Source: Candidatus Atabeyarchaeum deiterrae
GTDB lineage: Archaea; Asgardarchaeota; Atabeyarchaeia; Atabeyarchaeales; Atabeyarchaeaceae
Reading direction: 5' to 3'
Assembly (NCBI GenBank): GCA_037310415.1
Contig: CP147780.1
Span: 160,001-224,000 of the forward strand
DNA: 64,000 bases
The translations under genes were made by a program, and so were the position numbers. Positions 19,784-56,162 of the stretch are shown here, one piece after another. The notes below the pieces were generated by a model, which saw nothing but the letters and a program-made list of their open reading frames with translations, had not been told where the DNA came from and made no database searches. How positions within the stretch are numbered: the stretch's first letter is position 1; every line of letters starts with the position of its first letter.

Positions 19784-21514
19784 TTGAGCAAAAAGGCGAA
19801 GGGCGGAGCACTGCCACATTTGATAAGAAGACATGCTTTGATAAACGCAGTCAAACATGAGGGGAAAGCGGACATAAAGACAGTGATAGGTCGAGTTATG
19901 GCTGACGCTCCGGAGGCAAGAAGTAAGATCACCGAAGTGAACAGGCTGGCTAGCGAGATCGTGTCAGAAGTCAACACGCTTTCGCTCGATGCACAAAAAG
20001 AAATGGTTGAGAGGATAGCTCCAGAGTATCTAGCCGATCGGAAGAAGGCTGGAAAGAAGGAATTACCGCCATTACCTGAAGCAGTTGAAGGAAAGGTTGT
20101 TACAAGGCTGGCTCCAGAGCCCAACGGCTACATGCATCTCGGACACGCAATGTCGTTCTTCTTCAACTATCTGTACGCTGAGAGGTACAAAGGGATACTG
20201 TGGCTGCGCTTTGAAGATACGAATCCCAGAAAAGAGAAGGCTGAATACTACGATGCGATCAGGGAAGACATCTCTTGGCTGGGAATAAAATGGAACAAGG
20301 AGAAAAGCAACTCAGATGACATGCTAACTTTCTACGAGTACGCCAAGAGGCTGCTTGAACAAGGGAAAGCCTATGTTTGCTCCTGCCCCTTGGAGGAGAC
20401 AAGAAAGAATAGGGCTACTGGCGAGATATGTCCTCACAGAGACAGTCCGCCTGAGAATAACCTCAGGCTATGGGAAGGAATGCTAGATAATAAGTTCAAG
20501 GAGGGCGAAGTGGTGTGGAGAGTCAAAGGGGACATGCGGAGCATGAACTACGTGATGCGTGACCCAACACTTTTCAGGATAGTAGACTCTCCTCACGCCT
20601 TCAAGGGTTCCAAGTACGTGGTGTGGCCGACATACGACTTCGCCGTCGCCGTTCAGGATAGCTTATGTGGAGTAACGCATGTCCTAAGAAGCAATGAGTT
20701 CGCTCCTCGAGGCGAACTACAGAACTACATTAGAAAGCTACTTCGTTTGAAAGACCCAATAATAATAGAGTACAGCCGATTCAACTTCGAAGGTACGCCA
20801 ACTGGAAAAAGGCTGATCAGACCGCTCATCGAAAATGGAACTGTCTCTGGGTGGGATGACATAAGACTATCTACAATCAGAGGGATTAGACGCCGAGGGA
20901 TCATTCCAAAAGCGATTGAGGAGTTCACTGTCCAAGTTGGGATCAGCCATGCCCAACCAGTCTTTTCGTGGGAACTGCTCCTTAGCTTGAATCGAAAAAT
21001 ATTGGATCCTCTGGCCAAGAGATACTTCTTTGTCAAAGACCCATTTAGACTAAATGTCGAAGACGCTCCGAGACTTTCAGTAAAACTCAAGCATCATCCT
21101 GAAGCTGACCTCGGATACAGGGAAATTGAGACACGGAGTGTATTCTTCATATCTCGCAATGACTTGCCGAAAATCAATGACCTAATGAGACTAAAAGATC
21201 TCTACAATGTGAAGATAACAGAATTGAGTGACGATGGAATTATCGGCAGATTTGCAGGCAGAGAGATGCAGGAAGGAATTACTAAGGTTCAGTGGACCAC
21301 CGACCAGCACATCGATGTTGAGGTTCTGGTTCCTGATCTCCTTTACAGGGGAAACTCCCTCAACGAAAACAGCTTAACAACCGCCAAGGGTTACGGCGAA
21401 GCCGCATGCAGAAACCTAGAAGTCGGCGATCACATCCAGTTCGAAAGATTCGGCTTCTGCAGAATTGATCAAAAGACTCAGAATAGCGTAATCGCATGTT
21501 TTTCTCACAAATAG
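19784..21514 (+). CDS. gltX: Glutamate--tRNA ligase (archaeal type)
   Basis: RLAPEPNGYMHLGH, RFEDTNP, WPTYDF, GWDD, QFERFGF. Confidence 0.96.
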   Translation: MSKKAKGGALPHLIRRHALINAVKHEGKADIKTVIGRVMADAPEARSKITEVNRLASEIVSEVNTLSLDAQKEMVERIAPEYLADRKKAGKKELPPLPEAVEGKVVTRLAPEPNGYMHLGHAMSFFFNYLYAERYKGILWLRFEDTNPRKEKAEYYDAIREDISWLGIKWNKEKSNSDDMLTFYEYAKRLLEQGKAYVCSCPLEETRKNRATGEICPHRDSPPENNLRLWEGMLDNKFKEGEVVWRVKGDMRSMNYVMRDPTLFRIVDSPHAFKGSKYVVWPTYDFAVAVQDSLCGVTHVLRSNEFAPRGELQNYIRKLLRLKDPIIIEYSRFNFEGTPTGKRLIRPLIENGTVSGWDDIRLSTIRGIRRRGIIPKAIEEFTVQVGISHAQPVFSWELLLSLNRKILDPLAKRYFFVKDPFRLNVEDAPRLSVKLKHHPEADLGYREIETRSVFFISRNDLPKINDLMRLKDLYNVKITELSDDGIIGRFAGREMQEGITKVQWTTDQHIDVEVLVPDLLYRGNSLNENSLTTAKGYGEAACRNLEVGDHIQFERFGFCRIDQKTQNSVIACFSHK

Positions 21515-21563
21515 TCGACGAGAAAACCTGTCATCTAGCACTACGTGATTTGATTTGAGAGAG

Positions 21564-21659
21564 AAAATGTGGGGTCTCATCGCCATCTCGGGAGAGGGAG
21601 GAGGGCGAGGAAGAGGGAATAATTGACCCGAAAAAACTTTTCTGGCTCTACCCCCACAT
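21564..21659 (-). ncRNA. Candidate 96-nt small RNA with kink-turn and pyrimidine-rich loop
   Basis: Terminal stem AUGU-GGGG/CCCC-ACAU, K-turn geometry (UAGA-GCCA / UGGC-GAU-GA), inner stem UUUCGGG/CCCGAGA, CU-rich loop; TATA 30 nt upstream, U-tract at the 3' end. Confidence 0.6.
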
Positions 21660-21681
21660 AATAAGATTCTGCCATAGAAGC

Positions 21682-21689
21682 AATATAAA
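21682..21689 (-). promoter_or_regulatory. TATA box of the candidate small RNA
   Basis: TTTATATT, first T 30 nt before the first paired base (21659); same octamer as the tRNA-Sec promoter. Confidence 0.55.
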
Positions 21690-21773
21690 CATTTACCCAA
21701 AAGAAGGGGAGTTTTATAAAGGCCATCACACTTTCTTGCGATTACCGCAGATCTTTGCGAAGATCACAAGAAA

Positions 21774-22385
21774 TCAATAACGATTGGCTCTATGTCTGCC
21801 TCTCAAAACCTGCCCACAGTTGGAGCAGATCTTAGGGTTCGATTCAAATTCGAAGCCGCATTTGGGGCATCTACTGGGCTTTTCCATAACGGATCCGGAA
21901 GGCAAATCGCCCGCGGTTCGTTCAGCTGTCAATTCTGCCCTAATAGCGCCGCCCAAGGCTCCTGCGAGACCCATAATAAAACCGCATTCAGTTCCGATCC
22001 AGACTTTTTCCAAGATTATGCTGAGTCCACCTGCAGCTAGGATTCCGGGAAAATAGGTTCTTGTAATGTAGAGAGAAAGCAATGAGACTATTATGCCAGT
22101 GGCTATGCCTGCAAAAAGACCATCTCCCCAGCTCTTGAGGAGTAGCAAGGACAAGAGAAAAGTTGCCGGCAAAGCGACTATTAGAAAGCTGGCTGAGAGC
22201 GGAGCATGTAGAAAGATTTCTATGAAAGCAAGAACGTACGCCCGTTCTCCTTGGCTTTGATATGTTTGAAGCAGTTCTTGGTATTGAGCAGACAAGAAAA
22301 AGTAGGATAGTACAGCTAGCAACAGTATTAAGAGGATAGAAGCGCCAATTGAACGAGTCTTGTGAACTGGCAATTCTATGAACAC
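21774..22385 (-). CDS. Membrane protein with C-terminal zinc ribbon
   Basis: About four hydrophobic segments followed by CPKC...CSNC. Confidence 0.75.
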   Translation of the reverse strand: MFIELPVHKTRSIGASILLILLLAVLSYFFLSAQYQELLQTYQSQGERAYVLAFIEIFLHAPLSASFLIVALPATFLLSLLLLKSWGDGLFAGIATGIIVSLLSLYITRTYFPGILAAGGLSIILEKVWIGTECGFIMGLAGALGGAIRAELTAERTAGDLPSGSVMEKPSRCPKCGFEFESNPKICSNCGQVLRGRHRANRY

Positions 22386-55529: not shown

Positions 55530-56162
55530 CTACATTTTCCTCCACTCAAAAATCAGATAGTTCACAATGCCTGAGGGAGGAATCGTTGCTATTATGAACT
55601 TCTTTCTCACCGTGGTTGCCAGTCTTCCTGCTCTCACTGTTTCTATTGGGTTGATTGTCGTGCCTTTTGGTAGAGCATGGACTATGAAGGGTGCGTGATC
55701 TATTCCTGGACCGTGCTGGTAGACTCCAAAGTCTGCACCGAACTTCAGTCCCGGTCTAACCACATAGCCTCTTTCCCTAAGATCTTTGTAGACAACGTAT
55801 TTATCATCAAATTCGAAGTAGACTTTTGTTGCATAATCCTGCAGCTCTCGGGCAGTCATCTGATTCTTTGTCTTGCTGTTTATCAGTTTTATTCTCTCTT
55901 TCTCGAGCAGGTAGAGAGCTTCAAGAAGTGAGAGCTCGACTGGGCACGTAAAGTCGAATGTCTTCGGCTTTCTTATTGAGATCGGCTGTCCGTAATAACC
56001 TTCCTTGTAGAGTTTTGATCCTTCTTTTGGATTCCACACTACGATGTGTGCCCCAATCAATTCGGCGGTAACCGGCTCGGTAAGCGCTTTCTCCTTCGAG
56101 ACTTTCTGCGCATCTTCCTTGGACAAATCACCGTGCCAAGATGTTTCGGTTGATCCTGTCAT
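55530..56162 (-). CDS. endA: tRNA-splicing endonuclease, catalytic subunit
   Basis: LSLLEALYL, YVVYKDLRERGY, GLKFGADFGVY..GPGIDHA, VRK (catalytic Tyr/His/Lys); start uncertain. Confidence 0.93.
   Translation of the reverse strand: MTGSTETSWHGDLSKEDAQKVSKEKALTEPVTAELIGAHIVVWNPKEGSKLYKEGYYGQPISIRKPKTFDFTCPVELSLLEALYLLEKERIKLINSKTKNQMTARELQDYATKVYFEFDDKYVVYKDLRERGYVVRPGLKFGADFGVYQHGPGIDHAPFIVHALPKGTTINPIETVRAGRLATTVRKKFIIATIPPSGIVNYLIFEWRKM

Follow-up and report, generated by a model that had tools for sequence, protein, structure and literature searches.

The small RNA locus lies on the minus strand of the window (the whole 64-kb stretch of DNA that was analysed) between two genes whose convergence had already been proposed from the sequence alone: gltX, ending at 21514 on the plus strand, and a minus-strand gene at 21774-22385, ending at 21774, which encodes a membrane protein of 203 aa whose C-terminus carries a zinc ribbon (CPxCGxEFxSNPxxCxxCG) and represents the syntenic upstream gene of the small RNA. 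The stop codon of the latter is overlapped by a palindrome at 21730-21775 (minus strand; TTCTTGTGAT..TCGCAA..TGCGG..ATCGCAAGAAAG) carrying a TCGCAA/TTGCGA motif. The promoter at 21682-21698 on the same strand consists of a BRE-like A-rich stretch (gggtaaatg) and the TATA box TTTATATT at 21689-21682, the first T of which is placed 30 nt ahead of A21659. The candidate mature small RNA, ~93 nt in length, occupies positions 21567-21659 of the minus strand, its 5' end being set by the TATA spacing and its 3' end by the closing helix and a U-tract. This tract (UUUU, then CUCU; 21560-21567, minus strand) comes directly after the closing helix and is read as an archaeal termination signal.

Along the minus strand, the RNA starts with AUGU (21659-21656) and continues with the non-bulged strand of a kink-turn (K-turn; 21647-21655), made of the NC-stem GGGG(G) (GGGGG at 21655-21651) and UA-GA (21650-21647), in which the GA at 21648-21647 is invariant. 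The C-stem strand GCCA at 21643-21646 has its partner UGGC at 21582-21585, while the inner helix assigned by the constrained fold joins UUUCGGG at 21628-21634 with CCCGAGA at 21586-21592. Enclosed by the latter is a large single-stranded loop of ~35 nt, UCAAUUAUUCCCUCUUCCUCGCCCUCCUCCCUCU (21593-21627), delimited from the sequence and the constrained fold; this C/U-rich loop includes the core CGCCCUCCUCCC at 21596-21607, identified as invariant by homologue comparison, and the loop motif CCUCCUCCC at 21604-21596. The bulged strand of the K-turn (21571-21585) is formed by the C-stem UGGC (21585-21582), the 3-nt bulge GAU (21581-21579), the tandem GA (21578-21577) and the GA-CCCC of the NC-stem, the last part belonging to the terminal stretch GA-CCCC-ACAU at 21576-21567. 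All sequence features named in the sequence-only reading were recovered at the minus-strand positions it gave, including the TATA box 30 nt before the 5' end.

The search of the host genome with covariance model R1 produced a sole match of 60.1 bits (E ~1e-11) at G000:C1:181567-181658, equal to window positions 21567-21658, and a repeat search likewise found one copy of the locus. A repeat or mobile element was thus ruled out, because the locus is single-copy. The overlapping minus-strand ORFs (21416-21700 and 21577-21729) were rejected as coding genes because indels of 1 and 30 nt between the f1 genomes break the frame and Pfam gave no match. Viral carriage was also dismissed: the 16 exact pattern matches in IMG/VR were close to the number expected by chance, itself a rough estimate based on the size of the collection, and only one weak R1 match (17.6 bits) was obtained. 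Nothing in the whole 64-kb window reached the gathering score of any Rfam family, and at E up to 10 the region 21300-21950 yielded unrelated noise only, including two weak C/D-type matches (E 4.6 and 7.3) located inside gltX at 21425-21484 and not in the small RNA.

Homologues were found by R1 in six Asgard families, i.e., in 3/3 genomes of f1, 5/5 of f7, 1/1 of f8, 3/4 of f14, 6/6 of f18 and 2/3 of f32, with zero matches in the remaining sampled families. The RNA is therefore carried by every or nearly every sampled genome of each of these families. In f1, f7, f8 and f32, exactly 24 nt separate the TATA box (8 nt) from the first G of the closing stem; the spacing is 26-29 nt in f18, and an A-rich stretch lies ahead of the box in every family member. 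Most homologues have a U-run ~5-12 nt past the stem; there is no immediate run in genomes G002 and G001 and in the f32 members. The own BRE/TATA box, the U-tract and the homologues in six families bear out the proposed separately promoted gene and show that the small RNA is a separate non-coding gene, predicted to be independently transcribed as an RNA of ~93 nt and present here in a single copy. It had been described as unannotated. The K-turn and the loop are conserved in relatives, no known family is matched and the locus is not a repeat. The RNA belongs to a family shared by Asgard archaea and listed in no catalogue.

Unconstrained folding of the locus was not significant (z = -1.46) because the energy model is ignorant of K-turns. 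When the K-turn helices were imposed, the minimum-energy fold was exactly the structure drawn in the sequence-only reading, including the UUUCGGG/CCCGAGA helix, and the core was ~78% unpaired in the constrained ensemble. The evidence beyond chance comes from the comparison with homologues, not from the fold. The counts for the K-turn were taken from alignment A3, fitted to the covariance model and cleared by hand of the false positives L074 and L079, instead of the MAFFT alignment A2, in which the K-turn of the own sequence was one column out of register. The GA of the 5' strand of the tandem was invariant in 22/22 distinct homologues, and the bulged strand read GAUGA in 20 and AAUGA in 3 distinct homologues, together 23/23. 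The 3b-3n position of the K-turn covaried (U-A, C-G, G-C, U-G), as did the C-stem (C-G to U-A; A-U to G-C; U-A/G-C/A-U). The flanking helices had 95.5% standard pairs with compensatory changes, compared to 19-49% in slid-register controls, and the observed covariation score was reached by 0/500 shuffles. The motif possesses every element of a standard K-turn, i.e., the Watson-Crick C-stem GCCA/UGGC, the GAU bulge, the tandem GA/GA pairs and the NC-stem, so that the K-turn recognized earlier in a single sequence proved perfect in sequence and, among 22-23 distinct homologues, invariant in its GA and covarying in its helices. The genome encodes two L7Ae-family proteins (PF01248 genes, at G000:C1:412156-412434 and 553729-554007), and we infer from the motif that the K-turn is bound by L7Ae. 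The inner helix is kept in G002 as UUGGGA/UCCCGA but missing in G001 and the other families, and for this reason does not belong to the family consensus.

The core CGCCCUCCUCCC was identical across all K-turn families. It also appeared on two scaffolds without a K-turn: in f12, where a long K-turn-less helix displays the same 12-mer at the same syntenic spot, and in the Loki-type f9. The closing helices of these RNAs (a long GC-rich stem GCCGG..GGGGCAGC in f12 and GACUCCUGCC in f9) lack tandem G.A pairs. Both have in common with the K-turn RNAs a loop that is closed by end pairing and displays (U)CGCCCUCCUCCC(C), a separate promoter and a U-tract, and the f12 RNA additionally shares the upstream gene and the TTGCGA element; they differ in being longer (120-190 nt) and in having extra hairpins. 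Because at least three scaffolds display the same invariant core, the core is, judging from its conservation, the functional centre, with the K-turn as one of the scaffolds presenting it. Each RNA has 2-4 C-triplet blocks. The own 16S rRNA ends at the 3' side with GGAUCACCUCCU, and the core resembles its 3' tail UCACCUCCU, in accordance with the earlier description of the loop as C/U-rich and anti-Shine-Dalgarno-like, and with its exposure in the constrained fold.

In two lineages, Atabeyarchaeia-1 (G001) and f18 (probably Freyarchaeia), the core is split by insertions of 29-30 nt at two different positions, and excision of the insert in silico restored the consensus core exactly in both. The unconstrained fold contained a CCCU/AGGG helix of 4 bp, an inner helix of 9-10 bp and a bulge of 3 nt (CC|A or CC|G) with the 5' junction in it, while the 3' junction (AA|U or AC|U) was located 2 nt past the 4-bp helix. 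The standard bulge-helix-bulge (BHB) criterion demands a 4-bp helix with a 3-nt bulge on either side, each bulge containing a cut site; since no outer helix was predicted, the inserts correspond to a relaxed form and are regarded as putative BHB-type introns. In these intron-rich lineages, the precursor appears to depend on the tRNA splicing endonuclease for the restoration of its core. To our knowledge, introns of the tRNA (BHB) type inside a regulatory small RNA represent a rare case. Here, the putative introns sit exactly in the core, in lineages known for extreme tRNA intron loads: Atabeyarchaeia and Freyarchaeia have been reported to be extremely rich in tRNA introns (PMC11291895; bioRxiv 10.64898/2026.10.13.758758).

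A homologue of the membrane/zinc-ribbon gene was present directly upstream of the RNA and on the same strand in six families (f1, f7, f8, f14, f32 and f12), with the RNA 115-200 nt downstream of it. The other flank varied: depending on the family, it was occupied by gltX, a TrmB-like gene, an AAA ATPase or an aminotransferase, in convergent orientation in f1, f14 and f32. The conserved syntenic neighbor is, therefore, the upstream membrane/zinc-ribbon gene and not gltX, as had been assumed. A C/U-rich RNA was also sought downstream of the membrane/zinc-ribbon homologues in f2, f5, f6 and f9, with none found; only f12 has one. The protein itself produced weak DZR/Zn_Ribbon matches only in Pfam and NCBIfam, and the nearest Atlas clusters were Asgard-specific hypothetical proteins. 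The palindrome at 21730-21775 is kept in three f1 genomes, folds at -20.9 kcal/mol and may be either an operator or a 3' stem-loop. The TTGCGA/TCGCAA motif was located upstream of 16/20 family promoters. The strong BRE/TATA promoter, the recurrent TTGCGA element and the fixed place after the membrane/zinc-ribbon gene point to a regulated expression of the RNA.

Since the invariant C/U core resembles the mRNA-docking tail of the ribosome, the RNA probably acts on translation. The mechanism which we favor, tentatively and at a little short of an even chance, is that the K-turn-clasped RNA binds L7Ae and masks Shine-Dalgarno sites via its exposed core, thereby affecting the translation of a set of mRNAs. 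In such a particle, the 5' and 3' ends of the RNA would pair as the NC-stem of a standard K-turn, and L7Ae bound to the latter would fix the short closing helices in place, shield the termini and keep the C/U-rich loop of 35-60 nt open. The loop would present the core together with further CCCUC/CCUCC blocks, copies of the CCUCC found in the 3' tail of 16S rRNA. Being exposed, the core might then pair with purine-rich sequences of the Shine-Dalgarno type (GGAGG and longer) on mRNAs in competition with the 30S subunit, which would lower translation initiation, or alter the stability, for a set of messages.

The target prediction suggested along with the earlier claim was carried out by scanning the entire genome for duplexes grown from seeds. 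The 5' gene regions, as judged from crude gene starts, made up 10.7% of the top 150 predicted duplexes and 6.4% of all seeded sites, a mild 1.7-fold enrichment of the kind that any CCUCC-rich probe should give. A specific mRNA target conserved among relatives did not emerge. The top predicted sites were mostly antisense strands of other C/U-rich intergenic RNAs. The whole genome, searched also for exact 11-mers complementary to the loop, contained no extended perfect complement to the core except for the antisense strand of the gene itself. Within the own rRNA operon and pre-rRNA, the complementarity did not rise above the genome background, the best duplex having -29.7 kcal/mol compared to -33 to -47 kcal/mol elsewhere.

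The 12-nt core with its invariant G, constant in the six K-turn families and on the f12/f9 scaffolds, is stricter and longer than generic Shine-Dalgarno pairing needs, and would be explained at least as well by a protein, or by one fixed RNA, as the partner. The RNA might accordingly act as a sponge or scaffold for a single-strand RNA-binding protein, in which the C-rich blocks and UCGCCCUCCUCC would mimic the 16S tail UCACCUCCU, the RNA would titrate or deliver the protein, and the K-turn with L7Ae would serve as a stabilizing clasp. We consider this option serious although somewhat unlikely. It is favored by the letter-for-letter constancy of the core, the several C-triplet blocks per RNA, the failure to find a conserved complementary RNA in the genome and the rRNA operon, and the tolerance of introns only where splicing restores the exact core; CsrB, which titrates CsrA, provides a precedent for such a sponge. 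Candidate partners would be Pno1/Dim2, a factor with a KH domain, and the endonuclease Nob1, but synteny links no candidate protein to the RNA, the sole conserved neighbor being the membrane/zinc-ribbon protein. The L7Ae particle might also be a snoRNA-like chaperone of ribosome biogenesis, whose C/U core would pair with purine-rich pre-rRNA, e.g., near the 16S 3' end or in a spacer, and guide its folding or processing. The spacer just after the own 16S 3' end does contain a CCCCUCC/GGAGGGG hairpin with a purine arm able to pair with the core, and most of the known archaeal L7Ae small RNPs act on rRNA; yet the background-level complementarity of the rRNA operon and the absence of a box C/D or H/ACA guide architecture make this role unlikely.

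The constant position behind the membrane/zinc-ribbon gene on the same strand in six families, with a variable opposite flank, would also be expected from a cis element of that gene, be it a structure in the 3'-UTR, a terminator or a fragment processed from its mRNA. This is quite improbable, however, considering that the RNA has a BRE/TATA box of its own at a constant 24 nt from the 5' stem, that f18 genomes have two RNA copies each while no full-length homologue of the gene was found in them, and that the f9 version is placed on contigs other than those holding the membrane/zinc-ribbon homologue. A snRNP-like particle of U4-like architecture, combining the K-turn and an L7Ae/Snu13-type protein with a U-rich tract inside an archaeal Sm ring, is suggested by the U4-like AAU bulge in the f14 K-turn and by the U-rich runs next to the core (GUUUUUUCG in f1, AAUUUUUCG in f14 and AGUUUUUGUG in f18). 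These runs, however, vary in place (preceding the core in f1, f14 and f32, following it in f7 and f18, missing in f8) and are common in AT-rich spacers in general; together with the lack of homology to any snRNA in Rfam, this makes such a particle very improbable. A wider scheme, possible but doubtful, would be an Asgard-wide riboregulator system, in which at least three structurally unrelated scaffolds (the K-turn/L7Ae clasp, the long helix of f12 and the Loki-type multi-hairpin RNA) would show an invariant 12-13-nt mimic of the 16S tail, (U)CGCCCUCCUCCC, and BHB introns would be tolerated only where splicing rebuilds the mimic. Such RNAs would compete globally with the small ribosomal subunit for mRNA, or else for a factor that binds the 16S tail, and the K-turn version with the U-runs next to its core would make up a snRNP-like RNP with L7Ae and possibly Sm.

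Very few regulatory RNAs of Asgard archaea are known to us, and none was found described in the literature searched. The new features brought out by the present comparison are the core on the K-turn-less f12/f9 scaffolds, the putative BHB introns, the common upstream gene and the TTGCGA motif. In this RNA, the predicted L7Ae/K-turn module would be used outside the classical rRNA-modification RNPs, and the displayed core copies the mRNA-docking tail of the ribosome. As the Asgard archaea are the closest prokaryotic relatives of eukaryotes, the RNA could give a view of global translation control and RNP evolution near the eukaryote root.

Compared to the known L7Ae K-turns (the C'/D' of archaeal box C/D sRNA and the U4 5' stem-loop), the motif agrees in the C-stem, the 3-nt bulge ending in U (GAU, with the U4-like AAU in f14), the tandem G.A/A.G pairs and the NC-stem. 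Its strands follow each other as in a D'/C' pair, GA on the 5' side and (R)UGA on the 3' side. In contrast to box C/D RNAs and U4, there is a single K-turn, in which the RNA termini form the NC-stem and not the C-stem, and which encloses a C/U loop of 35-60 nt instead of a guide; a second box pair, a guide placed upstream of the D box and a fixed Sm site are all absent. The misfit with both classical guide classes, already pointed out in the sequence-only reading, was confirmed by the architecture tests and Rfam. A box C/D sRNA was rejected on account of the reversed order (GA strand 5', GAUGA strand 3'), the lack of a second box pair in any member, the lack of rRNA complementarity above background and the lack of a Rfam C/D match at threshold. 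A H/ACA sRNA was rejected since the K-turn occupies the base of the structure instead of the upper stem, and since an ACA after the stem is a feature of the own sequence that the homologues lack.

The L7Ae-binding K-turn operators in the 5'-UTRs of Sulfolobus and Archaeoglobus demonstrate K-turns outside the classical sRNPs and L7Ae-mediated translational control (PMC5539422, PMC6298567). These operators act in cis from the leader of the gene that they regulate, whereas the RNA described here has its own promoter and terminator and is followed by no gene in the same orientation: gltX, which comes next, is convergent, and the downstream gene differs between the families, which excluded such an operator. 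Among trans-acting archaeal RNAs, sRNA41 from Methanosarcina mazei reportedly masks ribosome-binding sites, its C/U-rich part pairing with the SD regions of several mRNAs; it comes from a different phylum, has no K-turn clasp and no sequence in common with the present RNA and is not known to be conserved beyond its genus. The cuckoo RNAs of Alphaproteobacteria (CcsR1-4/RSs0680, alpha-r14/NfeR1) expose anti-SD motifs of the CCUCCUCCC type in unpaired loops, often several per RNA, and have been proposed or demonstrated to base-pair with ribosome-binding sites. These bacterial, Hfq-related RNAs present the motifs in hairpin loops instead of an end-to-end clasp, and are not known to contain a K-turn or introns. 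No homology to cuckoo/CcsR/alpha-r14 was detected in Rfam, either at the gathering score in the 64-kb window or at E up to 10 in the region 21300-21950. The likeness to cuckoo/CcsR and Y RNAs proposed earlier stands as an analogy and not as homology: what the RNA shares with the cuckoo RNAs is functional only, an unpaired anti-SD motif of the same type, here at 21604-21596 within the predominantly unpaired core.

The 259-nt gap between gltX (19784-21514, plus strand) and the convergent gene of a 203-aa protein (21774-22385, minus strand) houses what is very probably a real, conserved K-turn RNA gene. When the minus-strand sequence was re-read, every coordinate of the sequence-only reading proved right: the TATA box TTTATATT (21689-21682) follows directly upon an A-rich stretch; the 5' strand of the clasp, AUGU-GGGGG-UA-GA-GCCA (21659-21643), starts 22 nt past this box and is succeeded by a region containing UUUCGGG, a C/U-rich loop of 35 nt with CCUCCUCCC at 21604-21596, and the 3' strand CCCGAGA-UGGC-GAU-GA-GA-CCCC-ACAU (21592-21567), after which comes a U-tract. 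Unconstrained thermodynamic folding of the locus gave no significance (z = -1.46). With both K-turn helices imposed, the minimum-energy structure was identical to the one drawn in that reading, and the loop core CGCCCUCCUCCC was 78% unpaired.

The whole window contained nothing at Rfam gathering scores, and around the locus only unrelated noise at E up to 10; no description of the family was found in the papers searched. A repeat was rejected, the element being single-copy in the 2,756,679-bp one-contig genome, and so was a protein-coding gene: the overlapping minus-strand ORFs had no Pfam match and were disrupted by 1-nt and 30-nt length differences among close relatives.

Homologues were detected by BLASTN in both other genomes of the source family (f1) and, unexpectedly, in further Asgardarchaeota families. 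A pattern search of 400 genomes of the phylum and the covariance model R1, built for the family, defined the distribution: R1 matched 3/3 genomes in f1, 5/5 in f7, 1/1 in f8, 3/4 in f14, 6/6 in f18 (four of these genomes carrying two copies) and 2/3 in f32, and none in f2 (0/4), f4 (0/14), f6 (0/26), f9 (0/25), f21 (0/7) and f31 (0/7), while the 19 f12 genomes searched yielded one weak false positive. Among the 23 distinct sequences left after two false positives were taken out, the 3' strand of the K-turn read GAUGA in 20 and AAUGA in three, and the 5' GA was invariant (22/22 distinct sequences). Standard pairs made up 95.5% of the helix cells in the homologue alignment; the 3b-3n position alternated between U-A, C-G, G-C and U-G, and the C-stem showed substitutions of C-G to U-A, A-U to G-C and among U-A/G-C/A-U. 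The observed covariation score was matched by none of 500 shuffles, with few independent lineages behind it, and slid-register controls paired at only 19-49%; these figures are supportive and no formal test, because the alignment leans towards the model to which it was fitted. The kink-turn proposed initially is thereby borne out by its invariant GA, its GAUGA/AAUGA strand and helices covarying across families: judged by sequence, the RNA holds a perfect standard K-turn, with the NC-stem apparently formed by its own termini. The source genome encodes two L7Ae-family proteins.

As far as promoter and terminator signals go, the RNA appears to be its own gene. In f1, f7, f8 and f32 the distance from an 8-nt TATA box (TTTATAWW-like) to the first G of the closing stem downstream is exactly 24 nt, and an A-rich BRE-like stretch comes ahead of the box; in f18 this spacing is 26-29 nt. 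Archaeal TATA boxes keep a usual spacing to the transcription start, which therefore would fall 0-2 nt before the stem, at ~21659 in the source genome. Most family members have a U-run within ~5-12 nt past the stem. A scan for bacterial-type promoters and terminators, a type not applicable to an archaeal locus, found nothing. A second TATA-like box, CTTTATAAAAC (21712-21720, minus strand), precedes the main box by 30 nt and is conserved in f1 genomes. Moreover, 16 of the 20 family promoters (f1, f14, f18, f32 and one f7 member) had TTGCGA or its complement TCGCAA in the 110 nt ahead of them, with a chance expectation of ~0.06 per such stretch, and the f12 promoters examined had it too. In all three f1 genomes a palindrome containing TCGCAA/TTGCGA is kept, TTCTTGTGAT..TCGCAA..TGCGG..ATCGCAAGAAAG (21730-21775, minus strand); its folding energy is -20.9 kcal/mol, and it reaches into the stop codon of the 203-aa gene. 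The recurrent motif and the palindrome suggest regulated transcription.

The core is identical in all K-turn families and probably outlives its scaffold. In f12 the RNA that shows it is longer, and its closing helix, GCCGG..GGGGCAGC, is GC-rich and lacks G.A pairs; in the Loki-type family f9 the core appears as UUUCGCCCUCCUCCCCCUAUUUU on a third scaffold, closed by GACUCCUGCC/GGCAGGAGUC (G217, G274, G275, G278 and G286, loci L149-L153; ~125 nt, two inner hairpins and U-rich runs). Since the core also stands on scaffolds lacking a K-turn, the K-turn is one means among several of clasping the loop, a plurality consistent with L7Ae serving to stabilise the structure. Genome G008 additionally carries, ~6.4 kb from its K-turn RNA, a GC-rich 14-bp helix GCGGGGGCGGCCCAG/CUGGGCCGCCCCCGC without a K-turn (L079, G008:C3:371180-371282, minus), closing a 60-nt loop of nearly all CCUCC/CCCUC repeats. 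Elsewhere in the source genome, beyond the window, a pair of intergenic paralogues (G000:C1, ~1938770-1938900 and ~1058590-1058720) is closed by GGAGGCGCGG/CCGCGCCUCC-type helices; both contain an inner UUCUUC/GAAGAA hairpin, leave a AUCCCCUCCCCUCCUCC strand exposed and may represent additional K-turn-less small RNAs of the C/U-display kind. Another C/U-rich intergenic tract is present at ~1273639.

In G001 and the second f18 copies the core is split between GCCCUCC and UCCCC by inserts of 29-30 nt (3 nt further upstream in G028), whose removal restores the consensus exactly. Folded without constraints, each insert forms a 4-bp helix of exon CCCU with intron AGGG, with the 5' junction within a 3-nt bulge, an inner helix of 9-10 bp and the 3' junction 2 nt past the 4-bp helix: a predicted relaxed bulge-helix-bulge motif. 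Two EndA genes (PF01974) are present in the source genome (window 55557-55811, minus, G000:C1:215557-215811; and G000:C1:625628-625888), as in two-subunit enzymes (bioRxiv 10.64898/2026.10.13.758758). In the lineages with these core introns, 92-95% of the tRNA genes are reported to be intron-bearing, with non-canonical positions frequent (PMC11291895), and the text of the tRNA-intron survey has zero occurrences of 'non-tRNA', 'sRNA' or 'small RNA' (bioRxiv 10.64898/2026.10.13.758758).

The best-supported reading is an RNP clasped by L7Ae at the K-turn, whose single-stranded core would pair with Shine-Dalgarno-type purine runs on mRNAs and might compete with the small ribosomal subunit, the evidence for this last step being weak. 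The pairing itself has somewhat less than an even chance. The core, (U)CGCCCUCCUCC, resembles the 3' end of the organism's own 16S rRNA, GGAUCACCUCCU, and shares its CCUCC; ~12% of crudely called starts have GGAGG in the 25 nt before them, and, with gene starts equally crude, 16 of the top 150 sites in the seeded duplex scan fall at 5' ends (10.7% vs 6.4% of all seeds). Many top sites are antisense to other C/U-rich intergenic RNAs, and extended complements to the core were absent from the genomes searched apart from the RNA genes themselves. Outside the window (G000:C1:2429859-2429877; L002:1501-1519), 19 nt of the loop, UAUUCCCUCUUCCUCGCCC, recur exactly between two convergent genes, where they sit in what may be a hairpin closed by CUUGG/CCAAG; this copy could be a paralogue remnant or, if the opposite strand is the one read, a 19-nt target of perfect complementarity.

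So strict a core, its G invariant, is equally compatible with a protein partner, in which case the RNA would be a sponge for a factor recognising the 16S tail or C-rich RNA; this reading ranks second to mRNA pairing, at roughly one chance in four. A role in rRNA biogenesis is improbable given that the rRNA operon has no special complementarity to the RNA. Right past the 16S 3' end (G000:C1:461607-461650, outside the window) the spacer forms a CCCCUCC-UCCAU-GGAGGGG hairpin, where an SD-like purine run pairs with an anti-SD-like run beside the real anti-SD. Slightly less probable still is that the RNA is a cis element belonging to the gene upstream of it. This gene encodes an Asgard-specific hypothetical membrane protein of ~190-240 aa, with the zinc-ribbon motif CPxCGxxFxSNPxxCxxCG at its C-terminus, and immediately precedes the RNA on its strand in f1, f7, f8, f14, f32 and f12. 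In f18 and f9 the RNA is present without this gene alongside, and full-length homologues of the protein also exist in families without the RNA at that spot. The downstream gene varies by family (gltX, TrmB-like gene, AAA ATPase, aminotransferase). Downstream of the homologue in two 1.4-Mb f2 genomes (G003 and G024; L093 and L094, ~100-400), TTGTGCGAA, a TATA box and, past it, long-range pairing CUGGCGG..CCGCCAG without a C/U core may mark another RNA gene in the corresponding place. An Sm/snRNP-like particle would be the least expected.

Compared with known systems, the RNA is neither a box C/D nor an H/ACA sRNA, as initially proposed, each class lacking one of its defining features here, and the 5'-UTR K-turn operator likewise differs in one defining feature, while the K-turn itself agrees with the standard one in all sequence criteria. 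The likeness to Cuckoo/CcsR RNAs and M. mazei sRNA41 is one of functional analogy and not of relationship.
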